Assembly: GCA_963797095.1 (NCBI GenBank)
Contig: CAWCNY010000008.1
Span: 96,001-160,000, forward strand
Source of the DNA: an uncultured Chloroflexia bacterium
GTDB taxonomy: Bacteria > Chloroflexota > Chloroflexia > QHBQ01 > JADMIH01
Length of the DNA: 64,000 nt
Reading direction: 5' to 3'
In this document: positions 19,616 to 44,056 of the stretch, one piece after another
Layout of the letters: every line of letters begins with the position of its first letter
How positions within the stretch are numbered: the first letter of the stretch is position 1
The notes under the pieces: model-generated
What the model saw: only the letters and a program-made list of their open reading frames with translations
What the model was told of the DNA's origin: nothing
The model's database searches: none
Program-made: the position numbers and the translations under genes

Positions 19616-21115
19616 CTATGTAAGCGGTCGCGGGTGGGCGGTCCCTATCTCGGCAGCGAGCCTGTATTGTGCGGCTGCCTTCTGATACTCGCCCCTGGCC
19701 CTCAGTATATTCCCGTATGCAAAGGCCACTATGTGCGCTAGCTCCACCAGCCCTCTTCCTTGCACAAGTTGATGTGCCTTTTCGAACAGCGCATCGGCCT
19801 CACCCCTATGCCCGCGCTCCTCCTCGATCAGGCCACCTATATGCAATGCTTCCACCTATGCTGTTGTGATATCTATCGGTGGATGGCCTGCGGCAAGCTC
19901 CCAGTTCCGAGTCCCGATTTTGCTCCCCCTCTCCCTCCCTCATCACACATAGACCCAGCGTCGCGTGCTCGGCAGCCTTATCCAGTTCCCCCTTCTGCGG
20001 TACAGATCCGCGTAATCGTACTGCAAATTACTCAGCAACACCCGATCGTCCGTCGCTTCCAGCATACCGGCGGCCTTTGCCAGCAACTCCTCCGCCTCAT
20101 CATATCCGGTATGGCGCACAAGAAGTTCCGCCAGGTGCATACACACAGCAACTGCTCCCACTATATCATCGAGCGCCTCATAAATATGCAGCGCCCGAGC
20201 GGCATATACTTTCGCCTGGGGCCAGTCGTTGTCAGCCTTGTATGCCACAGCCAGCGCCCACAAGAGGCTGGCCTCCCTTTCCACTCCGTTCAGGTCCGCT
20301 ATCAGCGCTAGGGCTTCTTTATAAGTGGCTATGGCCTGGGGCACATCGCGCAGCGCCCAATTGTCGTTTGCCAGATTGTGCAGGATACTGAGGCGCGGGC
20401 TGCGGTCTTTCACCACGCCCTTTTCAATGGAATAGAGGCATTGCGGGTGGTGATGGAGCGCCGCAACCGGCTGTTCCATGAGATAGTATGCCACTCCAAG
20501 CATATTACGCACGATCGTGAGCGAGTCCTCGTCACCGCCAGCCGCCCCCTGGGCTTCCTCCAGGTGAACCTGAGCCAAGTGTGGTTGTGAACGTTGGAGA
20601 TATGCCAGCCCTCGCAAGAAGTGGGGCCTGTAGAGTAGGCGTGGGGGCAGTTTCTTGCTGAAGATAGCGGCGCTTTGCTCCGCACACTCAACAAGAGCCA
20701 GCGCCATAGATTTCGCCTACCCCACCACCCGTATTTGATACGCAGCATTGGCTTCGTCGCCACTGCGTATCAACATTCGAGCGTAGTTGTACTGGTAATT
20801 GAGGCCCTCCTGTAATGTCTCCAACTCCGGCTCTCGAAACGCACCACCTATCCCACTACCCTGATCCTGGTAGCAGCTACCTGTGCCTACCGCTATCCCT
20901 ACCAGGAAGTGCGATAGCGGTAATGCGAGGCGAGAGGAGATCTACTCCAGCACCTTCAGAGAAGGGCGCACAGCGCCGCGCTCGATCGCGCTCACATACC
21001 CCTCGGTGAAACGGGGGCCTGCCAATTGCTCTTGTGTCAGCCCTTGCTCCTTTCTCGCTTTGCGGATACGAGCGCCGACAACAGACCCAATATTGTGTCG
21101 AAACCCTGTGCGCAT
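19616..21115 (-). pseudogene. XRE-HTH + TPR regulator (RRNPP-like architecture), fragmented
   Basis: GARIRKARKEQGLTQEQLAG..YVSAIERGAVRPS ends in a premature stop at 20942. TPR-like helical fragments at 19943..20707 and 19616..19855. Confidence 0.75.
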
Positions 21116-21282
21116 GGTTTGCCTTCGCTTATCTCTTTCGATCTTGATGCCCCGCCAACCGTGCACATCCACCCGCTAAAGAGCAATTCACCCCTGTCAT
21201 ATCTAGCCAATGCACGTAAAATGCTCAACAGCGTACTGATTACATGGTAGCACAGGCATTCAAGGCAACACAAGACACACAG

Positions 21283-21314
21283 CTCGTCACTCGTCACTCG
21301 TCACTCGCTACTCG
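21283..21314. repeat. heptamer repeat CTCGTCA x4
   Basis: CTCGTCA x3 then CTCGCTA and CTCG. Confidence 0.9.
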
Positions 21315-21397
21315 GTGGTTATGCCGGCTTTTGCTGCTTGAGCGTTATGTGATACAATTCATAGGAAGAGTCAAGATTACGCTAATGGGGTATCAGG

Positions 21398-22966
21398 ATG
21401 GAGCCAATCCTCCGATGTATCACCGTTTCTAAGAGATTCGGCTCATTGTCCGTTCTCAGGCAACTTAGTTTTGAAGTTGCGCCAGGCGAGATCGTAGGGC
21501 TGGCGGCAGGGCATGGCGACGGTAAGTCGGTGCTGGCAGCGATCCTGGCGGGTACCGAGGCTCCCAGCGAAGGTGAAGTGTTCATAGCAGGTCAGCGTAT
21601 GCGCTGGCCCTTCAGAGCGCGCTCGGTGGGCGTTGAAGTGATCCACCAGGAGCCGGAGTTTGTCGAGCACCTGGACATTACCGCCAACATCTTTCTCGGC
21701 CACGAATTGGGCTGGCTAAAAGGATCGCTTTTGCGACGGCCTGACGAAGCCCGAATGAACCAACTGGCAACCGATGCCCTCGCCCAACTTGACGCTCATG
21801 TAGCACCGCTACATGAACCTGTGGTCAACCTATCGAGCGAGCAACGCCAGCTTATCGAGATCGCTCGCGCGCTGGTGCACCCGGCACGGCTGGTGATCGT
21901 AGACGACCCCGCGCTCCCCCTGAGCTATACCTACCAGCAAAAACTGCTGTCGGTGGTGCGCTCGTGGCAACAGCAGGGCACAGCGGTGCTCTTTATCAGC
22001 AACAATCTCGATCACCTGTTCGCCCTGGCCGACCGCATTATCGTGTTGCGGCAGGGCACCTGTGTGGCGAACCTGCGCACCGAGGCCACCGACCGCGAGG
22101 ACGTGGTAGCAGCCCTGGTCGGCACGACAGATCGACAGCAGCTTACGCCTATCATCTGGGCTTTGAGCAGCTACTATCGCGCCCGCGAAGAGGCCGAGAA
22201 GCTGGGCAACCGCCAGACCCTGCTGAAGCAAAATCTCGCCGAGCAGATCGCGGCTCTCGACAGCGCCAACCTGGCACTCCAGGATGCCCACCGCCGCTTG
22301 CTTACCGAGCGCGAGCAGGAACGAAAGGCTCTCGCCCGCGAATTGCACGACCAGGTCATCCAGGACCTGTTGAGTATGAACTACCAGCTAGAAGAGGTCG
22401 AAGCGGAGAGCCTTCCTGGGCGCGCCGACCATTTCGCCGATGGACTGTCAGAGGTACGCGCCGGAATCAGGGGTCTGGTGGACGATTTGCGCCGCATTTG
22501 CGGCAATCTGCGCCCGCCCACCATAGACAGCCTGGGGGTTGGCGCGGCTCTACAATCGTATACTCGCGACTGGTCCGTGCGCACTGGAATCCCCTTGCGC
22601 TTTGAACTGGACGAGCGGCTTGGACGCCTTCCGGAAGCTCTTGAGCTATCGATCTTCCGGATAGTGCAGGAGGGCTTGAACAACATTCGGAACCATGCAG
22701 GGGCTACCGCAGTGCAGGTAGCGCTACGCCGTACTTCGCCCACCGCCGTGACAATCATCGTGTCGGACAACGGTCGTGGGCTTCCCGAGGATTTCGACCT
22801 GGCTATGCTGGCCGAGGGGGGTCATTATGGCGTGCTGGGGATCAGCGAGCGGGTGGCGCTGGTGGATGGGCGGTGGCAGTTCCAGAACCAGCTTGGGGGT
22901 GGCACCCTGCTTCAGGTGGAGATACCCCTCAAGCGAACAAGGGTGAAAGCTGCGAAAGAAAGATAA
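21398..22966 (+). CDS. fusion of a degenerate sugar-ABC ATPase domain and a HisKA_3/HATPase histidine kinase
   Basis: aa 1-245 are NBD-like (AGHGDGKS, IHQE, LSSEQRQ, VIVDDP, ISNN), then a coiled coil, ARELHDQVIQ H-box, QEGLNNIRNHA, DNGRG and YGVLGISER. No TM segment. Confidence 0.9.
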   Translation: MEPILRCITVSKRFGSLSVLRQLSFEVAPGEIVGLAAGHGDGKSVLAAILAGTEAPSEGEVFIAGQRMRWPFRARSVGVEVIHQEPEFVEHLDITANIFLGHELGWLKGSLLRRPDEARMNQLATDALAQLDAHVAPLHEPVVNLSSEQRQLIEIARALVHPARLVIVDDPALPLSYTYQQKLLSVVRSWQQQGTAVLFISNNLDHLFALADRIIVLRQGTCVANLRTEATDREDVVAALVGTTDRQQLTPIIWALSSYYRAREEAEKLGNRQTLLKQNLAEQIAALDSANLALQDAHRRLLTEREQERKALARELHDQVIQDLLSMNYQLEEVEAESLPGRADHFADGLSEVRAGIRGLVDDLRRICGNLRPPTIDSLGVGAALQSYTRDWSVRTGIPLRFELDERLGRLPEALELSIFRIVQEGLNNIRNHAGATAVQVALRRTSPTAVTIIVSDNGRGLPEDFDLAMLAEGGHYGVLGISERVALVDGRWQFQNQLGGGTLLQVEIPLKRTRVKAAKER

Positions 22967-23003
22967 AGCATAATAGAGATAAAGCATAATAAGGAAGTCA
23001 AAT

Positions 23004-24074
23004 ATGGTTGTTAGGAGTTCAACGATGAACACGGCGCGAATAGTGGTTGCCGACGACCACGCGGTAGTGCGGGCGGGGATCGCTAATGCTCTACGGGGTC
23101 TATCCAATATTAAGATCGTGGGAGATGCAAGCGATGGTGAAACGCTGTTGTCCATCCTGGACAAGACACAGCCTGACTTGCTCGTAACCGACATCACTAT
23201 GCCCAACTTCGAGCCGATTGAGGGTATCGGTAGCATCCGTGCGAGGTTCCCGAACCTCAAGATCCTCATTGTAAGCGCCTATGACGACGATATGTACATA
23301 CAGGGACTGCTGAGGGCAGGCGTGAACGGCTATCATCTAAAAGACCAACCTCTCAGCGACCTGCGATTGGCCGTGCAGCAGGTGTTGGAAGGCAAGATGT
23401 GGGTAACAAGTCGCCTCGTTGAGAAACTGGTGCAAGAGCATAGTACGCCAACACCGGCCCGGGCCCTGACCGCCCGGCAGCGTGATATGCTACAACTGCT
23501 CAAACAGGGCCTGGACAATTATGCTATCGCACGCCGCACGGGCTTGAGCGTCAAGACCGTAGAAAACCATCTGACGCGCCTCTACCGGCATTTAGATGTC
23601 CAGAGTCGCCTTGAAGCTGTCAATTACTGTATGCAGCACCCGGAGGTGCTGGGCGATGCGAAGTTGGCTGCCAACCACTTCCAGGCTCTCACTGTGCAAG
23701 CTTCCCTCCAGCCGACCATCCTGATCGTAGACGATAATACTCGCTATCGCACCCAGATGCGCCGAATGGTGGGCAAGAACTACCCCGAAGCAATGGTGTA
23801 TGAGGCGGAGAACACCGCCCTCGCGCTGCGCTTCGTGGGCGAAGTCAAGCCTCGTCTGGTATTCGCCGACGTGGTGCTTGGCGACGAGAATGGCATTGAG
23901 TGTGCATCGCAAATTAAGGCCCTTTCGCCTGCCACCAGGGTCGTCTTGATCAGCGCGTACCCCGACCGTGAATTTCACCGCGCAGGACTCGAAGCAGGGG
24001 CGGTGGCCTTCCTGGACAAGAAGGACCTCAACAACGCCACACTACGCGAGGTAATAGCTGATCTAGCAGGTTGA
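23004..24074 (+). CDS. response regulator REC-LuxR HTH-REC
   Basis: VVADDH..VTDITMP..YHLK, HTH LTARQRDML..SVKTVENHL, second receiver LIVDDN..FADVVL..FLDK. Confidence 0.92.
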   Translation: MVVRSSTMNTARIVVADDHAVVRAGIANALRGLSNIKIVGDASDGETLLSILDKTQPDLLVTDITMPNFEPIEGIGSIRARFPNLKILIVSAYDDDMYIQGLLRAGVNGYHLKDQPLSDLRLAVQQVLEGKMWVTSRLVEKLVQEHSTPTPARALTARQRDMLQLLKQGLDNYAIARRTGLSVKTVENHLTRLYRHLDVQSRLEAVNYCMQHPEVLGDAKLAANHFQALTVQASLQPTILIVDDNTRYRTQMRRMVGKNYPEAMVYEAENTALALRFVGEVKPRLVFADVVLGDENGIECASQIKALSPATRVVLISAYPDREFHRAGLEAGAVAFLDKKDLNNATLREVIADLAG

Positions 24075-24080
24075 TCTTAT

Positions 24081-24096
24081 TAGGGGATTTCCCCTA
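24081..24096. promoter_or_regulatory. 7-2-7 palindrome TAGGGGA-TT-TCCCCTA, candidate NarL-type operator
   Basis: Perfect inverted heptamers with a further TGGGGGA half-site at 24104, upstream of the importer. Confidence 0.5.
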
Positions 24097-24113
24097 TTCA
24101 TTTTGGGGGAAAC

Positions 24114-24148
24114 AAGGGTAGCCAAGTTACTTCAACTTGGCTACCCTT
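24114..24148 (+). terminator. 15-bp perfect hairpin
   Basis: AAGGGTAGCCAAGTT-ACTTC-AACTTGGCTACCCTT downstream of the response regulator. Confidence 0.6.
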
Positions 24149-24421
24149 TATTCGACGTACAGGAATTTTATCCCGTGCGGTTTGATGACCGTAGCTATCG
24201 CCCTGTTTTCATGCTCCGTTTATCGCGTAGCGAGCAAGGATCCCGCGCCAACGAGCATCGTCGCAACTCGCCGGAACGGTCAAGAAGGAGGTGAGTCGCC
24301 GGAGACACGATGTTTGAAGCCCTATCTATAGCCCTATCTATATAGGTAGGCATGAGCATGGCCTTGTGACGGCCATTTTGGCAAGAACGAATTTCGATGA
24401 AGAAAAACAGGAGGAAAGTTT

Positions 24422-26617
24422 ATGAAACGGACAACATCGTTGTTGGCGCTATTGATAATTGTATCTATGCTCCTATCGGCCTGTGGCGCAAATTCGACCC
24501 CCACCCCGCTCCCTGCTCCCACAAATACGGCCGCGCCGGTGGTAGTGCCAACAGACACCACAGCCCCCGCAGCCACAGCCACTACAGCACCTGTGGCCAC
24601 GGCCACCACCCCGGCGGCGGCAGGAGGCAAGATAGCCATCCTGCTCCCTGAGACCAAGACAGCCAGGTATGAGAGCCAGGACCTCCCCAACTTCAAGGCC
24701 GAGCTCACGGCTCTAGGTTTCGACGTAGACAACAATCTGATCTACAGCAACGCGAACCAGGACGCAGCCGCCCAGCAGCAGCAGGCTGAAGCTGCCCTCA
24801 CTAACGGCGCGAAAGTGCTGGTGCTCGACCCTGTCGACTCCGATGCCGCTGCCGTGATTGCTGATGCAGCCAAAGCTAAGGGTGTGCCGGTCATCTCTTA
24901 TGACCGCCTGATCAAGAACACGGATGCTGTGAATTACTACATCTCCTTCGACAACGAGCAGGTTGGCAAGCTCCAGGGTGAGAGCTTACTGACTGCTCTT
25001 GCCGGGGTTACGAACCCAAGCATCGTGATGATCAACGGCTCGCCTACTGATAACAACGCTACCCTCTTCAAGCAAGGTGCTCACTCGGTGCTCGATGGCA
25101 AAGTAACCATCGCCAAAGAGTACGATACCCCCGACTGGTCCCCTGACAAGGCCCAGGAGGAGATGACCCAGGCTCTCACCGCCCTTGGCAACAAAGTAGA
25201 TGGGGTGTATGCCGCCAATGACGGCACCGGTGGTGGCGCTATCGCTGCCATGAAGGCTGCTGGCATCTCCCCACTTCCTCCAGTCACAGGGCAGGATGCA
25301 GAGTTGGCAGCAATCCAGCGTATCCTGGCAGGTGAGCAGTACATGACCGTCTACAAGGCCATCAAGCCTGAGGCCGAAACTGCTGCCCAACTTGCCTTCA
25401 TCCTGCTGGGTGGCGGCACCCCTAATACATCGAGGATCAACGGCCAGGTCGACAACGGCAAGATCAATGTACCCTCCGTGCTGCTCGTGCCGGTAGCCGT
25501 GACTAAAGACAACGTCGCCAGCACCGTCATAGCTGACGGTTTCTGGACAGCCGACCAGGTCTGCACAGCCGATTACGCCCAGGCGTGCACGGACGCTGGT
25601 ATCGGTGGCGGGGGCTCAACAACAGTGCCATCAGGCAAGATAGCCATCCTGCTCCCTGAGACCAAGACAGCCAGGTATGAGAGCCAGGACCTCCCCAACT
25701 TCAAGGCCAAGCTCACGGCTCTAGGTTTCGACGTAGACAACAATCTGATCTACAGCAACGCGAACCAGGACGCAGCCGCCCAGCAGCAGCAGGCTGAAGC
25801 TGCCCTCACTAACGGCGCGAAAGTGCTGGTGCTCGACCCTGTCGACTCCGATGCCGCTGCCGTGATTGCTGATGCAGCCAAAGCTAAGGGTGTGCCGGTC
25901 ATCTCTTATGACCGCCTGATCAAGAACACGGATGCTGTGAATTACTACATCTCCTTCGACAACGAGCAGGTTGGCAAGCTCCAGGGTGAGAGCTTACTGA
26001 CTGCTCTTGCCGGGGTTACGAACCCAAGCATCGTGATGATCAACGGCTCGCCTACTGATAACAACGCTACCCTCTTCAAGCAAGGTGCTCACTCGGTGCT
26101 CGATGGCAAAGTAACCATCGCCAAAGAGTACGATACCCCCGACTGGTCCCCTGACAAGGCCCAGGAGGAGATGACCCAGGCTCTCACCGCCCTTGGCAAC
26201 AAAGTAGATGGGGTGTATGCCGCCAATGACGGCACCGGTGGTGGCGCTATCGCTGCCATGAAGGCTGCTGGCATCTCCCCACTTCCTCCAGTCACAGGGC
26301 AGGATGCAGAGTTGGCAGCAATCCAGCGTATCCTGGCAGGTGAGCAGTACATGACCGTCTACAAGGCCATCAAGCCTGAGGCCGAAACTGCTGCCCAACT
26401 TGCCTTTACCCTGCTGGGTGGCGGCACTCCCGACGCATCTATGGTCAACGGCCAGGTCGACAACGGCAAGATCAACGTCCCGTCCATTCTGCTCGTGCCG
26501 GTAGCCGTGACTAAAGACAACGTCGCCAGCACCGTCATAGCTGACGGTTTCTGGACAGCCGACCAGGTCTGCACAGCCGATTACGCCCAGGCGTGCACGG
26601 ACGCTGGCATCAAGTAA
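24422..26617 (+). CDS. monosaccharide (XylF/ChvE-like) binding lipoprotein with two tandem binding domains
   Basis: Lipobox LSAC. KIAILLPETKTARYE..ISYDRL..INGSPTDNNA..AAND..TGQDA occurs twice. Confidence 0.93.
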   Translation: MKRTTSLLALLIIVSMLLSACGANSTPTPLPAPTNTAAPVVVPTDTTAPAATATTAPVATATTPAAAGGKIAILLPETKTARYESQDLPNFKAELTALGFDVDNNLIYSNANQDAAAQQQQAEAALTNGAKVLVLDPVDSDAAAVIADAAKAKGVPVISYDRLIKNTDAVNYYISFDNEQVGKLQGESLLTALAGVTNPSIVMINGSPTDNNATLFKQGAHSVLDGKVTIAKEYDTPDWSPDKAQEEMTQALTALGNKVDGVYAANDGTGGGAIAAMKAAGISPLPPVTGQDAELAAIQRILAGEQYMTVYKAIKPEAETAAQLAFILLGGGTPNTSRINGQVDNGKINVPSVLLVPVAVTKDNVASTVIADGFWTADQVCTADYAQACTDAGIGGGGSTTVPSGKIAILLPETKTARYESQDLPNFKAKLTALGFDVDNNLIYSNANQDAAAQQQQAEAALTNGAKVLVLDPVDSDAAAVIADAAKAKGVPVISYDRLIKNTDAVNYYISFDNEQVGKLQGESLLTALAGVTNPSIVMINGSPTDNNATLFKQGAHSVLDGKVTIAKEYDTPDWSPDKAQEEMTQALTALGNKVDGVYAANDGTGGGAIAAMKAAGISPLPPVTGQDAELAAIQRILAGEQYMTVYKAIKPEAETAAQLAFTLLGGGTPDASMVNGQVDNGKINVPSILLVPVAVTKDNVASTVIADGFWTADQVCTADYAQACTDAGIK
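24625..26611. repeat. near-identical intragenic duplication, 1008-bp period (24625-25603 / 25633-26611)
   Basis: Long identical stretches. Differences at AEL/AKL, FILLGGGTPNTSRI/FTLLGGGTPDASMV and PSVL/PSIL. Confidence 0.95.
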
Positions 26618-26631
26618 GTAGATCCTAGTAT

Positions 26632-26675
26632 AATAGGGGACCGGGGCGGGCTAACACCCTCCCTGGTTCCCTATT
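26632..26675 (+). promoter_or_regulatory. intercistronic stem-loop after the binding-protein gene
   Basis: AATAGGGGACCGGGGCGGG..CCCTCCCTGGTTCCCTATT imperfect inverted repeat, a common position for mRNA-stabilising hairpins. Confidence 0.55.
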
Positions 26676-26697
26676 GTTCCCTATAGGAGGAACGTCA

Positions 26698-27528
26698 ATG
26701 GCGACATCGGAACGCACGCCAGTGCTCGAATTACGCGGTATCAGCAAGCGTTTCGGCGCTGTGCAGGCGCTTACCGACGTAAACTTCGACGTATACGCAG
26801 CCGAGGTGGTGGGACTTGTGGGCGACAATGGCGCGGGCAAGTCTACCCTTATTAAATGCATCGCAGGTATTCATCCAATAGATTCGGGCGAGATCTACTT
26901 TGAAGGACGGCGCGTAACGATCTCAGGCCCTAAGGGCGCGCTGCAACTCGGAATATCTACTGTGTACCAGGACCTTGCTCTGTGTGACAACCTGGACGTA
27001 GTCGCCAACCTCTATCTGGGCCGCGAAGAGTCGCGCCCGATCATCCCCGGCATATTCAGCATCGTTAACGAGACAAAGATGGAGCAACGTGCTATCGACG
27101 TGCTCCGGGGTCTCTCCGTGACAATTCCGAGCGTAAGAACACTGATCGCCTCGTTGTCAGGCGGCCAGCGCCAGTCAGTAGCTGTCGCGAGGTCGGTCAT
27201 GTGGAAGCCCAAGCTGGTTATCCTGGACGAGCCGACAGCCGCGCTGGGTGTTGCCCAAACTCGTCAGGTTCTGGACCTGATCCGCCGCCTGCGCGAGCAG
27301 GGGCTGGCTGTGATCGTGATCAGCCACAATCTTGAAGATGTCTTCTCGGTCGTGGACAGGATTAGCGTATTGCGCCTGGGCCGTAACGCCGGCACATTCG
27401 ATGTCAAGGATGTGAGCTATGAGCAGGTGGTAGCCGCTATCACAGGCGCGGAGTTCGGGACTTGGGAGCAAGGCGCTCACGAGGCTGAAGACGAGGTGGT
27501 TGCCCCGGCAGGAGGTGGAGTGTCATGA
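26698..27528 (+). CDS. sugar ABC transporter ATPase (single-domain CUT2 type)
   Basis: GDNGAGKS, YQDLALCDNL, LSGGQRQ, ILDEPT, ISHN. AGGAGG RBS. Confidence 0.95.
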   Translation: MATSERTPVLELRGISKRFGAVQALTDVNFDVYAAEVVGLVGDNGAGKSTLIKCIAGIHPIDSGEIYFEGRRVTISGPKGALQLGISTVYQDLALCDNLDVVANLYLGREESRPIIPGIFSIVNETKMEQRAIDVLRGLSVTIPSVRTLIASLSGGQRQSVAVARSVMWKPKLVILDEPTAALGVAQTRQVLDLIRRLREQGLAVIVISHNLEDVFSVVDRISVLRLGRNAGTFDVKDVSYEQVVAAITGAEFGTWEQGAHEAEDEVVAPAGGGVS

Positions 27529-28739
27529 GCACTATGATCGACGATCCACGCCTGATCAAGCAGGAGGCCGGCGGCAACTTCTTCAGCAACCTGCGCAAGC
27601 GCTTCGCCTATACCGACCTGGGCCAATTGCCCGTTTTGATCGGCCTGGTGCTGATCTGGGTGATCTTCCAGTGGGCCAACGCCAACTTCCTCAGCCCCGT
27701 CAACCTGACCAACCTGCTTTTGCAAAACGTGGCAATAGGGATCACGTCGGTGGGCATCACGTTGGTGCTGCTGCTGGGCGAGATCGACCTGTCGGTAGGT
27801 GCGGTAAGCGGGCTTACGGCCTCCATCATGGCCGTCCAAAATGTTAAGAACGGCATGCCCGGCATAGTGGCTATAGGGTTGGCGCTGCTGGCAGGGGCTG
27901 TAATCGGTCTTATTCATGGCCTCTGGCTCACCAAGTTGCGCGTTCCCGCTTTCGTAGTAACCCTGGCAGGTCTACTTGGCTGGCAGGGAGCGCAATTGCA
28001 GGTGCTGGGCACCACAGGCACGGTCAACTTGCGGGACCCGACCATCACCGGGCTGACGCTCACATTCTTCCCGGCGTTCTGGTCCTGGGTGATTACAATA
28101 GCAGCTGTAGCGCTATACGCAATCGGATCGTTCTGGGAGCGGCAACAACGTGTTTCGGCGGGCCTAGTTTCTATCACCCGCAGCGCCCTTGTAGCGCGAA
28201 TCGCGGCTGTCAGCATTGGCGTGCTGGCGGCCACCGCCATATTCACAGCCGACCGTGGCCTCCCCCTTTCCGTGGTGATCTTCCTTGGGGTCATAGTGGT
28301 CATGAACACGGTGACCAAGCGCACCAAATTCGGGCGGTACATCTATGCCGTGGGCGGTAACGCCGAGGCGTCCAGGCGTGCCAGCATCAACGTGGACAAC
28401 ATCCGCATCGCCGTCTTCACACTCTGTTCGTTACTGGCGGCGTTAGGGGGGGTGATGGCAGGCTCGCGACTCCTTGCGGTGAACCAAAGCTCAGGGGGGA
28501 GCGACTTCCTGCTGAACACTATTGCGGCGGCGGTTATCGGGGGGACGAGCCTGTTCGGTGGGCGGGGCACGGTGTGGGCAGCGCTGCTGGGTGCGCTGGT
28601 GATCGGGTCGATCTCGAATGGTATGGATCTGCTGGCGCTTCCCTCGCCGGTGAAGTTTATGATCACGGGCGGGGTGCTGCTGGCAGCGGTTACTCTGGAC
28701 GCTCTGATCCGCAGGCGCAGAGTGGCCACGGGGCGATAA
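27525..28739 (+). CDS. sugar ABC transporter permease (XylH-like)
   Basis: GEIDLSVG, VPAFVVTLAG, FGRYIYAVGGN, IAAAVIGGTSLFGGRG. Confidence 0.95.
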   Translation: MSTMIDDPRLIKQEAGGNFFSNLRKRFAYTDLGQLPVLIGLVLIWVIFQWANANFLSPVNLTNLLLQNVAIGITSVGITLVLLLGEIDLSVGAVSGLTASIMAVQNVKNGMPGIVAIGLALLAGAVIGLIHGLWLTKLRVPAFVVTLAGLLGWQGAQLQVLGTTGTVNLRDPTITGLTLTFFPAFWSWVITIAAVALYAIGSFWERQQRVSAGLVSITRSALVARIAAVSIGVLAATAIFTADRGLPLSVVIFLGVIVVMNTVTKRTKFGRYIYAVGGNAEASRRASINVDNIRIAVFTLCSLLAALGGVMAGSRLLAVNQSSGGSDFLLNTIAAAVIGGTSLFGGRGTVWAALLGALVIGSISNGMDLLALPSPVKFMITGGVLLAAVTLDALIRRRRVATGR

Positions 28740-28914
28740 ACTAGCCCAGGCTTCGTCTCAGCGATTGCTGAGGCAGATAATCGAGCCGGAAATGCCCTAT
28801 CTAGAGCGCCCGGCTCTTTCTTTGTCTTTGTGACCCATTCCACTCAGCAGAGAGATCAAACCTGACGCTGTTTCCCCTTCACATAGTTATTAAATATCTA
28901 GCAAAATAATATCT

Positions 28915-29523
28915 ATGCCGAGACAATTCAAACGTTCACCCCTCGCCCTGGCCATACTCGCCCTCTTTCACGAAGCGCCGATGCACCCATATCGAATGCA
29001 GCGGCTGATCAAAGATCGCGGCAAGGACCAGGTTATCAATGTCCAACAGCGTGCCAGTCTCTACCAGACCGTCGGCCAGCTCCTTCGCGCCGGGCTGATC
29101 ACCTTCTGGGAGAATGAACGCAATGAAGGATTTCCGGAGCGTACCGTCTACAAGCTCACCGATAAAGGCCACCACACAGCCGTGAATTGGATGCGGGAGA
29201 TGCTCTCAACACCTGCTCAGGAATACCCGCAGTTCCCGGCGGCGATCTCCCTGCTACCACTTCTGACGACGAAGGACGCTATTCACCGGTTAGAGATACG
29301 GGAAGCCACGCTTGCCGGGCAAATAGCCTCCATTGATGCGGAAATACAAACATATGCGGTTAGCTTACCCAGGATCTTCTTGCTTGAATCAGAATACATG
29401 AGGACCATGCTTGACGCCGAACTGAAATGGGTGCGCTCGGTCATCGCAGACTTGGACAGCGGCCAGCTTACCTGGAACCAGGAATGGATGCAGCCATCTG
29501 AGCCGCCGCGGCCACAAGAGTGA
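28915..29523 (+). CDS. PadR-family transcriptional regulator
   Basis: LAILALFHEAPMHPYRM..SLYQTV..PERTVYKLTDKG. Confidence 0.9.
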   Translation: MPRQFKRSPLALAILALFHEAPMHPYRMQRLIKDRGKDQVINVQQRASLYQTVGQLLRAGLITFWENERNEGFPERTVYKLTDKGHHTAVNWMREMLSTPAQEYPQFPAAISLLPLLTTKDAIHRLEIREATLAGQIASIDAEIQTYAVSLPRIFLLESEYMRTMLDAELKWVRSVIADLDSGQLTWNQEWMQPSEPPRPQE

Positions 29524-42411: not shown

Positions 42412-43407
42412 GTGATGAATAAACCAAGCGTTCAGGTGCGAAACACGGCAAGCAACAAGCAAACCACAACCAGCTCCGCACACCTGGCATTCACCCGCCA
42501 GCGAATTACCAGGCTGAAATGGATCACCACGCTGGCACCCACCGCAGCCGTGTTCCTCTCCGAAACCATCCGCCACGATCTGTTCGAGCACCTTTTACCG
42601 CTACCTGTCGCCTATGGCAACCTCCTTACAGGCTTGTTGGTCCTGGTACTCGCCTATGGCTTCTCGGAGGTGATCTTTGGCATCGTGTTGCGCCTGCAAG
42701 ACCAGGCACTGGCGCGAAGTCGAGAGGTAGCCGCTCTCGAAGCGGCGGTGCAGGAGCGCGAGCGTCTGAGCCGTGAGCTTCATGATGGCGTGGCCCAACT
42801 CGTCTCCTACCTGATGATACGGCTCGATACGGTCGAATCGCTCGTCGAAAGCGAGCAGCGAGAGCAAGCCCTGGCCGAGTTAGAGCAGTTGCATGGCGTG
42901 GCCGATGATATCTACGTCGACATTCGCGAGTCGATTGCAGGGCTGCGCACCAATCTCAACGGTAAGCTGCTGGTGCCCGCCCTGCGAGATTATCTTGACG
43001 CGTTCGAGGAGCGGCACAATTTGCCCATAAAGCTAGAAACGAAAGGACAGCCTTTTCGCTTGCCAACTCAGGTGGCGGCCCAGATTTTCAGAATAGTGCA
43101 GGGAGCGCTGGCCAACGTGCGTAAGCACTCGGCGGCGCAACATGCCTGGGTCTTACTGAGCTATAGCCCAAGCAAACTGGAAATGACAATTGGTGACGAT
43201 GGCGTTGGCTTCGACGTTGCTAACCTGTCTGGCACAGACACAGTAGGGCTTGACGCCATGCGCGAGCGCGCCGCCACGTTGGGCGGCACCTGCCGGGTGG
43301 AGAGCCTGCCAGGCCGGGGCACTCGCGTAATCGTCAATGTGCCCTTATCAAAGAGAGAGAAGGTAGGCAATGCAACCGCCCCACCCCTTGAAGTTGCTGC
43401 TCGTTGA
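42412..43407 (+). CDS. HisKA_3 sensor histidine kinase, two TM
   Basis: ERERLSRELHDGVAQ, ALANVRKHS, DDGVGFD, GLDAMRERA. Confidence 0.93.
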   Translation: MMNKPSVQVRNTASNKQTTTSSAHLAFTRQRITRLKWITTLAPTAAVFLSETIRHDLFEHLLPLPVAYGNLLTGLLVLVLAYGFSEVIFGIVLRLQDQALARSREVAALEAAVQERERLSRELHDGVAQLVSYLMIRLDTVESLVESEQREQALAELEQLHGVADDIYVDIRESIAGLRTNLNGKLLVPALRDYLDAFEERHNLPIKLETKGQPFRLPTQVAAQIFRIVQGALANVRKHSAAQHAWVLLSYSPSKLEMTIGDDGVGFDVANLSGTDTVGLDAMRERAATLGGTCRVESLPGRGTRVIVNVPLSKREKVGNATAPPLEVAAR

Positions 43408-44056
43408 TGATCACGACCTCTTTAGAGAGGGGCTGGTAGCGCTCTTTTCGTACCAGCACGATTTCGTGGTGGTCGGTGAGGCGGGGGACGCCGAAAGCGC
43501 TATCGCCCAGGCTCGCAAGCTCCGGCCCGACCTCGTGCTGATGGATATCGACCTGTCCGGTGGCGATGGTGTGCTCGCCACCCAGCAAATCAAGAGTGAG
43601 ATGCCTGGTGTTGCCGTCGTGATGCTCACAGTCTACGACGATACCGAGAAACTGCTGGAAGCCATCAAAGCCGGTGCTGAGGGCTATCTGGTCAAGAACA
43701 TTCGCGCCTCTGAGTTAATTGTGCAATTGCGCGGCCTGGCTCATGGCGAGGCTGCCATAACAAGGCGTATGGCGACGCGCGTCCTCAACGAGTTCCGCAA
43801 GCAAGATAATGATGGCGAGTCCGAGCAACCCACCGGAACCGACCCGCAGCTAACGCCCAGGGAGCTTGAGGTGCTCGAACTGGTGGCTGCTCGCAACTCC
43901 AATCGAGAGATCGCCGATACCCTCACGATCAGCGAGTATACGGTCAAGAACCACATCAAGAGTATTCTCACCAAGCTGCAATTGCGTAGCAGACACCAGG
44001 CAGCCATGTATGGAGTAGCTCGCGGCTGGATACACCCTACGGATAGCACTCAGTAG
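43370..44056 (+). CDS. NarL-family response regulator
   Basis: LLVDDH, VLMDI, GYLVK, LTPRELEVL HTH. Confidence 0.95.
   Translation: MQPPHPLKLLLVDDHDLFREGLVALFSYQHDFVVVGEAGDAESAIAQARKLRPDLVLMDIDLSGGDGVLATQQIKSEMPGVAVVMLTVYDDTEKLLEAIKAGAEGYLVKNIRASELIVQLRGLAHGEAAITRRMATRVLNEFRKQDNDGESEQPTGTDPQLTPRELEVLELVAARNSNREIADTLTISEYTVKNHIKSILTKLQLRSRHQAAMYGVARGWIHPTDSTQ

Follow-up and report, generated by a model that had tools for sequence, protein, structure and literature searches.

A Chloroflexota histidine kinase with a fused ABC nucleotide-binding domain, predicted not to hydrolyse ATP, as a candidate transporter-docked sensor

A histidine kinase gene beside a sugar importer

The stretch of DNA analysed here (the window) comprises 64,000 nucleotides from an uncultured Chloroflexia bacterium (assembly GCA_963797095.1, contig CAWCNY010000008.1, positions 96,001 to 160,000). 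At 21398-28739 of the window, five genes that the map of open reading frames (ORFs) places on the plus strand set a histidine kinase fused to the nucleotide-binding domain (NBD) of a transporter from the ATP-binding cassette (ABC) family next to a sugar importer of the CUT2 type. The kinase gene (21398-22966) encodes a protein of 522 amino acids and is followed by a response regulator of 356 amino acids (23004-24074), in which a GerE/LuxR-type helix-turn-helix (HTH) lies between two receiver (REC) domains. The importer genes are those of a sugar-binding lipoprotein with two tandem Peripla_BP_4 domains (24422-26617, 731 amino acids), a single-domain CUT2 ABC ATPase in which every catalytic motif is intact (26674/26698-27528, 284 amino acids, likely start at the ATG at 26698, Pfam ABC_tran 105.9 bits), and a CUT2 permease of the long BPD_transp_2 type (27525-28739, 404 amino acids). 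This layout had been proposed in an earlier note made from the sequence alone, and the ORF map and Pfam searches of all five products reproduce it.

Three domains are detected by Pfam in the kinase: ABC_tran at residues 20-172 (69.7 bits, cut-off 25), HisKA_3 at residues 308-374 (48.7 bits) and HATPase_c at residues 416-512 (36.5 bits). The NBD-like input, assigned by homology to ABC NBDs, spans residues 1-245 (nucleotides 21398-22132), and the first 243 residues align with the neighbouring ATPase at 33% identity (BLASTP, E 2e-43), as had been judged by eye. No transmembrane (TM) segment was found in the kinase (maximum Kyte-Doolittle hydropathy over a 19-residue window 1.21 vs 2.4 for the permease), nor a PAS domain by Pfam, nor a periplasmic or other extracytoplasmic domain by Pfam and hydropathy. 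The description of the gene as an ABC_tran, HisKA_3 and HATPase_c fusion that lacks a membrane segment is therefore borne out by Pfam, BLASTP and hydropathy. The N-terminal part belongs to the ABC NBD fold (PF00005), and the C-terminal part has the H-box histidine of HisKA_3 kinases, the N and G boxes of HATPase_c and an adjoining regulator with a GerE domain. Read from its sequence, the protein is a soluble HisKA_3 kinase whose sole input module is a CUT2-type ABC NBD predicted not to hydrolyse ATP, here referred to as the pseudo-NBD.

The two NBDs encoded at the locus differ in four motifs. Walker A reads AGHGDGKS in the kinase vs GDNGAGKS in the ATPase, the signature LSSEQ vs LSGGQ, the motif of the catalytic glutamate VDDP vs LDEP (Asp in place of Glu), and the H-loop ISNN vs ISHN (Asn in place of His). 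The earlier note had called the domain catalytically dead on these grounds. All four changes are present, but AGHGDGKS still matches the P-loop consensus [AG]x4GK[ST], and the Walker B aspartate (VIVD) and the Q-loop glutamine are retained as well. Among the residues expected of a catalytic ABC ATPase, those of Walker A and Walker B are in place, and only the signature glycine, the catalytic glutamate and the H-loop histidine are altered, so that the word dead would fit ATP hydrolysis by this domain and not ATP binding.

A model of the kinase was calculated with AlphaFold2 from an alignment of 45 family sequences (mean predicted local distance difference test score, pLDDT, 83.8). It predicts a compact NBD at residues 1-241, followed by one unbroken helix at residues 246-337, previously taken for a coiled coil, that runs into the phospho-acceptor His317 held within it. 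Past this helix come helix 2 of the dimerisation and histidine phosphotransfer (DHp) domain (residues 344-371) and the catalytic HATPase_c domain (residues 376-512). Foldseek neighbours of the model are ABC NBDs alone, with FbpC and MalK at the top (E about 1e-17). A sequence search of the PDB recovered no solved fusion, and only ABC transporters or NBDs are among the 60 best matches listed. Across the 45 family sequences, His317, N429, D457, G459 and G461 are invariant.

The fusion family and its motifs

The architecture search that the earlier note had proposed returns a large Chloroflexota family that is not unique to this assembly. In a collection of 5.8 billion proteins, the 120 best of 2623 matches all combine PF00005, PF07730 and PF02518, share 59-88% identity with the window protein and come from sources whose names include Kouleothrix, Roseiflexaceae and Anaerolineae. 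Relatives are encoded in 478 stretches of contigs drawn from one genome per species, and for the best 80 of these 478 loci the record titles name only Chloroflexota (Anaerolineae, Chloroflexia, Caldilineae, Thermoflexia and Ardenticatenaceae). Clustering at 50% shrinks the full-length family to about five representatives, and the next matches beyond it are ordinary two-NBD CUT2 sugar ATPases of roughly 500 amino acids. The family is annotated by generic names only and is uncharacterised. A search of the full-text literature found no fusion of an ABC NBD with a histidine kinase, an absence that stays unproven given that most subscription journals lie outside the coverage of the search.

CUT2-type NBDs also occur fused to other outputs, in the arrangements NBD-GAF-HisKA-HATPase_c, NBD-PAS-PAS-HisKA_3-HATPase_c and NBD-MalT TPR-LuxR HTH (proteins P0215, P0144, P0266 and P0163). 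P0266 shares the signature glutamate and is missing the H-loop histidine, and P0163 keeps the catalytic glutamate and the histidine.

We give hardly any credence to the idea that the fusion is an assembly artefact or a decaying gene that has lost its function. Read support for the exact window sequence is indeed thin, as it comes from one low-coverage run of soil DNA that gave six short contigs; about a quarter of the sampled words matched, and large parts of the stretch are uncovered. This run may be the source sample of the window assembly, and no RNA run was listed among those that contain the sequence. However, one of its contigs (151 nt, no differences) bridges the junction between the NBD and the helix (22054-22204), and a single ORF of the same architecture is present in hundreds of independent assemblies. 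The window protein also retains all of the residues that are invariant in the family, and the conservation pattern of the kinase is consistent with purifying selection.

The motifs were counted in 81 members, namely those of the best 80 loci and the window. The kinase histidine is present in all 81 and the H-loop histidine in none (N in 42, D in 17, Q in 7, K in 6, others in 9). The second glycine of the signature is replaced by glutamate in 76 members (D in 2, Q in 2, V in 1), and the motif loss expected to be conserved is thus family-wide for both the signature and the H-loop. The catalytic position is more variable (E in 34, D in 31, N in 10, G in 4, V in 1, S in 1). Walker A fits the P-loop consensus in 70 members and is lost in 11, which belong to several separate lineages (including L022/L076, L025, L040, L033, L065/L066 and L074/L077/L078; L numbers denote related loci). 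The Q-loop glutamine is found in 72 members and an aromatic residue at the A-loop position in 65. The segment after the Q-loop, NxFLGxE, is almost unchanged (N in 80, F in 80, G in 81 and E in 81 of the 81). A separate census of 121 database proteins gave K in 121, Glu in 121 and His in none.

Given that the residues for hydrolysis drift while the post-Q-loop segment is fixed, hydrolysis appears not to be under selection, nor, in some lineages, ATP binding. In most members, the window protein included, ATP is probably still bound because Walker A is intact in 70 of the 81, and it would serve as a ligand and not as a fuel. In MalK-type importers, the helical-subdomain segment that follows the Q-loop lines the groove that receives the coupling helix of the permease. 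At the signature position that is glutamate in this family, the CFTR changes G551D/E are described as blocking ATP-driven NBD closure through repulsion of the gamma-phosphate (PMC4178940).

Amino-acid identity between the window kinase and its two closest genomic relatives is 0.73-0.74 in the NBD, 0.68-0.73 in the kinase core and 0.85-0.87 in the linker helix. In this three-way comparison, the linker helix is the most conserved part of the protein and the NBD is conserved as much as the kinase core.

Genomic context and proposed docking on a permease

Domains at the related loci were called with hidden Markov models (HMMs) built from the loci, and representative neighbours were confirmed by Pfam (BPD_transp_2 and Peripla_BP_4). 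Across all 81 loci, 68 have a REC-GerE-REC regulator no further than 4.5 kb from the kinase. With the distance set at 8 kb, 69 have a CUT2 permease and 71 a binding protein, and any ABC part is present in 75. In the 44 loci that extend for 5 kb or more to either side, a CUT2 permease is found within 8 kb in 43, a binding protein in 43 and a separate NBD in 39, and the synteny with CUT2 importers on which the earlier note had staked its proposal is conserved. Directly upstream of the kinase gene, on the same strand and less than 200 nt away, are a permease gene in 19 of the 81 loci, permease and binding-protein genes in 14 and a binding-protein gene at a contig end in 2 (35 in total). In loci of the L032 type, the permease, binding-protein and kinase genes overlap or lie 4 nt apart. 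At four loci (L007, L027, L038 and L047), genes for a permease and a binding protein are present, and within 8 kb the kinase supplies the sole CUT2-type NBD.

A tree of 80 permeases, 30 of which are kinase-adjacent, places 25 short kinase-adjacent ones in one clade (support 0.976) and 43 transporter permeases in a separate clade (support 1.0). The kinase-adjacent permeases of L068, L069, L070 and L073 are of the importer's own long type, and that of L015, which is not counted in the 25-member clade, is a long-branch outlier outside all clades, its long branch probably reflecting a frameshift in the ORF call. Many members of the family own a private permease lineage, often together with a binding protein of their own beside the kinase, and some encode a full set of binding protein, permease and NBD whose sole NBD is that of the kinase.

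This context bears on the view that the protein is a soluble sensor of nucleotides or energy, whose NBD stays in the cytoplasm, binds ATP/ADP or another cytoplasmic ligand or protein, and tunes importer expression with no permease contact. The absence of a TM segment agrees with such a sensor, as do the preserved nucleotide-pocket features (Walker A consensus in 70/81, A-loop aromatic in 65/81, Q-loop glutamine in 72/81) and the fusion of this NBD type to other outputs (GAF-HisKA, PAS-HisKA_3 and MalT-TPR-LuxR), for which the input is often cytoplasmic. However, loss of Walker A in 11 of the 81 members has left the remainder of the domain and the kinase in place, and the most conserved segment of the NBD is the post-Q-loop motif and not the nucleotide pocket. 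A sensor of this kind would also leave unexplained the dedicated permease clade that is translationally coupled to the kinase gene (by overlap or 4 nt, e.g., in L032), and the loci in which both permease and binding protein accompany the kinase but no further NBD is encoded. We regard this view as quite unlikely.

The window carries a derived form of the system that has no permease of its own. Its kinase groups with those of L001 and L002, in which permease, binding-protein and kinase genes stand in a row, inside a large clade of kinases with adjacent permeases. The window assembly (6.0 Mb, 93% complete) yielded only three CUT2 permease genes, the one in the window and two of a tandem-ATPase system on another contig (C3). 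The order kinase, regulator, binding protein, single ATPase and long permease recurs in a congener with a kinase 73% identical, which indicates that the arrangement is stable. The kinase is patchy in distribution, as it was detected (E <= 1e-50) in 2 of the 25 genomes of the window's genus searched and in 3 of 41 relatives overall, many of them with incomplete genomes; an orthologue of the window permease is present in 11 of the same 41. In two relatives (G026 and G028), neither a kinase nor a regulator of this type is found near the importer, and a ROK gene adjoins the importer in G028. Importer orthologues that occur without the kinase imply that importer and ATPase work without the pseudo-NBD. 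The window's kinase clade and importer type are paired differently in other lineages, which suggests shuffling or transfer of kinase and importer as cassettes.

In a tree that sampled only NBDs at kinase loci, the fused NBDs form a monophyletic group (0.775) that is sister to a clade of single-domain ATPases that includes the one of the window (joint support 1.0). Together with the database matches, the tree places the kinase NBD in the CUT2 importer lineage. An origin of the fused NBD from the N- or C-terminal half of tandem CUT2 ATPases was considered and rejected, as the tree groups it with the single-domain ATPases.

In the version of the earlier note, one pseudo-NBD would pair with one active ATPase on the permease dimer of the importer. 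The kinase would then track the ATPase cycle of a transporter at work, and so sense flux. Several observations speak for such a heterodimer. No sensor permease was found in the window genome or in the congener, the fused NBDs are sister to single-domain ATPases of the window type (support 1.0 in the tree restricted to kinase loci), a single-domain ATPase gene follows directly after the kinase gene in eight loci of the L032 type, and in natural CUT2 tandem ATPases one half is of the consensus type and its partner is degenerate. However, with both the H-loop and the signature degenerate, both composite sites of the heterodimer would be impaired, and a kinase dimer brings two pseudo-NBDs instead of one. 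The four loci that have no other CUT2-type NBD within 8 kb offer no partner for pairing, in tandem-ATPase loci both NBD sites of the transporter are already occupied, and importer orthologues exist without the kinase (permease in 11/41 and kinase in 3/41; G026 and G028). On balance, a heterodimer is unlikely.

We consider it fairly probable that the two pseudo-NBDs of the kinase instead dock together on a CUT2 permease dimer and sense the state of the binding protein and its sugar. Histidine kinases in general dimerise via their DHp helices. On docking, its stoichiometry, the direction of the signal and the regulon, we infer the following sequence of steps. The kinase would dimerise through its DHp helices, and the two pseudo-NBDs would fill both NBD docking sites of the permease dimer. 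A sugar-loaded binding protein that docks on the outer face would shift the conformation of the permease, which would alter the separation or the rotation of the pseudo-NBDs. The change would travel along the helix of residues 246-337 (92 residues) to His317 and switch the protein between kinase and phosphatase activity, and the REC-HTH-REC regulator (23004-24074) would then control the adjacent importer operon. In the window, the kinase would use the importer permease (27525-28739), alternating or competing with the ATPase (26698-27528); this permease is its only plausible docking partner at the locus. The predicted geometry agrees with docking: judging from the AlphaFold2 model and the architecture of MalK, the C-terminus of an importer NBD would face away from the membrane close to the dimer axis, a position from which a coiled-coil stalk could begin.

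Docking is favoured by the synteny, the dedicated permease clade and the motif pattern seen across the family. That a kinase dimer fills both NBD sites is favoured by the four loci that have no other NBD, by the joint degeneration of signature and H-loop and by the existence of importers without the kinase. The claim of a transporter-docked sensor is supported to this extent, whereas its placement of one pseudo-NBD beside an active ATPase is not favoured. Modelling of a complex between permease and fusion, also suggested in the earlier note, was run as a two-chain prediction of the permease with residues 1-250 of the kinase, from alignments built for this analysis. Its score of 0.51 falls in the weak band (best of 3 controls 0.00); at least 58% of contacts are shared between the runs, and the pLDDT of the partner is 78 or more. 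The mark for this score was reached by 58 of 80 solved complexes and by 2 of 110 mismatched pairs, and scores of 0.60 or below while passing were obtained for 7 of those 80 solved complexes and for both passing mismatches. For the window itself, this weak prediction and our inference from the family suggest that the pseudo-NBD may dock on the importer permease.

Several points weigh against docking. Sensor-type permeases and binding proteins were searched for in the window assembly by tblastn (queries from L001, L008 and L032) and none was found, so that docking requires an importer permease that already has its own ATPase. Synteny with importers would be equally expected if the kinase system merely regulates them. 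The regulator, and not a permease, lies directly upstream of the kinase in 21 of the 81 loci, 25 of the 81 have none of these genes in that position, and no ABC part lies within 8 kb of the kinase at one well-flanked locus (L063). The gene calls at the related loci are rough ORF and HMM calls and not curated annotation. The score of the predicted complex may reflect nothing but the family likeness of NBDs and their permeases. Finally, dN/dS can be read as a rough guide only, because dS lies above 1, in saturation, and two values could not be defined, and amino-acid identities were used in its place.

A broader reading, which we offer tentatively and hold to be possible rather than probable, is that an ABC importer has here been turned into a transmembrane sugar receptor. 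Its parts would be the binding protein, the permease dimer and a kinase dimer that occupies both motor sites with its pseudo-NBDs. ATP would act as an allosteric ligand, possibly opposing closure through the signature glutamate. The lineage of the window would have lost its own permease and would time-share that of the importer, so that the output of the kinase reports how the permease is split between transport and signalling (flux or occupancy). Since the pseudo-NBD module is also fused to GAF-kinase, PAS-kinase and MalT-TPR-LuxR outputs, it could be a general and so far unrecognised input domain that plugs signalling proteins into ABC permeases.

Related systems and further features of the window

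Transporter-coupled sensing by two-component systems is already known as such from the Bce, Pst-PhoU-PhoR and SLC5-kinase systems, and what would be new is its coupling through a fused pseudo-NBD. The window system would work in the manner of transporter-coupled sensing but belongs to none of the systems compared below.

In the Bce modules of Firmicutes (BceAB-BceS), a kinase that has no ligand domain of its own likewise senses through association with an ABC transporter, and transporter and kinase control each other (PMC10314905). However, BceS, a membrane kinase, touches the BceB permease via TM helices, is a separate polypeptide and works with an active ATPase, BceA. The window kinase is soluble and has no pair of TM segments, its link to the transporter would be the fused non-hydrolysing NBD, and the importer is a binding-protein-dependent CUT2 system with a BPD_transp_2 permease instead of a BceB-type permease with a large extracellular domain. 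The PstSCAB-PhoU-PhoR system is similar in that a kinase lacking a periplasmic sensor reads the conformational state of the importer and not the solute (PMC5775613), but the coupling is made by a separate adaptor, PhoU, and an active ATPase, PstB, with no fusion of NBD and kinase.

A transporter module is fused to a histidine kinase as its input in the SLC5-STAC-kinase proteins CbrA and CrbS (PMC7096432, PMC5715377). These proteins fuse the membrane domain of a secondary carrier, whereas the window kinase fuses the soluble motor of an ABC transporter, which would need a separate permease. In XylFII-LytS, LuxP-LuxQ, TorT-TorS and HptA-HptS, a Peripla_BP-type protein signals a sugar to a two-component system by which the matching ABC importer is induced; XylFII-LytS, for example, controls xylFGH (PMC8050422). 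In those systems, the contact is between the binding protein and a periplasmic domain on a membrane-bound kinase (such as LytS, LuxQ or TorS). The window kinase has no extracytoplasmic domain, and its signal would instead cross via the ABC permease.

Degenerate sites of asymmetric ABC proteins and the CFTR G551D/E changes share with the family the loss of the H-loop histidine and the catalytic glutamate and an acidic residue in place of the second signature glycine (PMC4178940). They differ in that one site is degenerate in a working transporter or channel, whereas in the kinase family every NBD copy is changed and the output is a kinase.

In the known systems, the route from transporter conformation to kinase is difficult to follow, since the partners are either distinct proteins or both embedded in the membrane. 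In the window kinase, one polypeptide would do the coupling, with the NBD on the permease and one helix leading rigidly to the phospho-acceptor histidine. If docking is true, the protein would be a natural minimal system in which the movement of an NBD on an ABC permease is converted into a biochemical output, would add a new class to the input domains of two-component systems, and would be an example of an ATPase domain kept for conformational coupling after its catalysis was lost. It would also account for the regulation of sugar uptake in many Chloroflexota, among them the filamentous Anaerolineae that abound in soils and activated sludge.

The regulator (23004-24074) is presumed to be the phosphotransfer partner of the kinase. 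Both of its receivers keep the DD/D/S/K residues (acidic pocket, phospho-acceptor aspartate, serine and lysine) in 66 of 66 orthologues, and both may be phosphorylated. On the 3' side of the regulator stop codon, two hairpins on the plus strand (24081-24149), made up of a terminator-like site (24081-24096) and an inverted repeat with 33-nt arms (24096-24166), may be terminators that part the kinase-regulator unit from the importer operon. Counts of terminator and promoter sites in 21000-29200 are no higher than in shuffled sequences, so these operon boundaries are only suggested. Repeat search and inspection of the sequence revealed two tandem, exact copies of a 12-mer that overlap an 18-nt palindrome (24318-24350), about 75-100 nt upstream of the start codon of the binding protein. 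This element may be an operator of the LuxR-type regulator.

The binding-protein gene contains an in-frame tandem duplication of the whole Peripla_BP_4 domain (24625-26640, spacing 1008 nt). Over 1008 nt, identity between the copies is 96.1%, and the first ~775 nt contain a single mismatch. Binding proteins with two and three domains are also encoded at related loci (e.g., three domains in L046 and L086). A protein of ~590 amino acids with FG-GAP/ASPIC-UnbV repeats, absent from the window, is encoded between or beside the importer and kinase genes in seven loci (L022, L025, L035, L046, L049, L051 and L076), all of which have an importer of the window type.

Upstream of the kinase, on the minus strand (19616-21172), the translations of three consecutive ORFs resemble by eye pieces of one HTH-TPR regulator, with an XRE-like HTH at 20942-21172 and TPR-like pieces at 19943-20707 and 19616-19855, and this gene may be frameshifted. 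A second pair of a HisKA_3 kinase and a NarL-type regulator was detected by tblastn at about 42751-44038 of the window (138751-140038 of genome contig C8).

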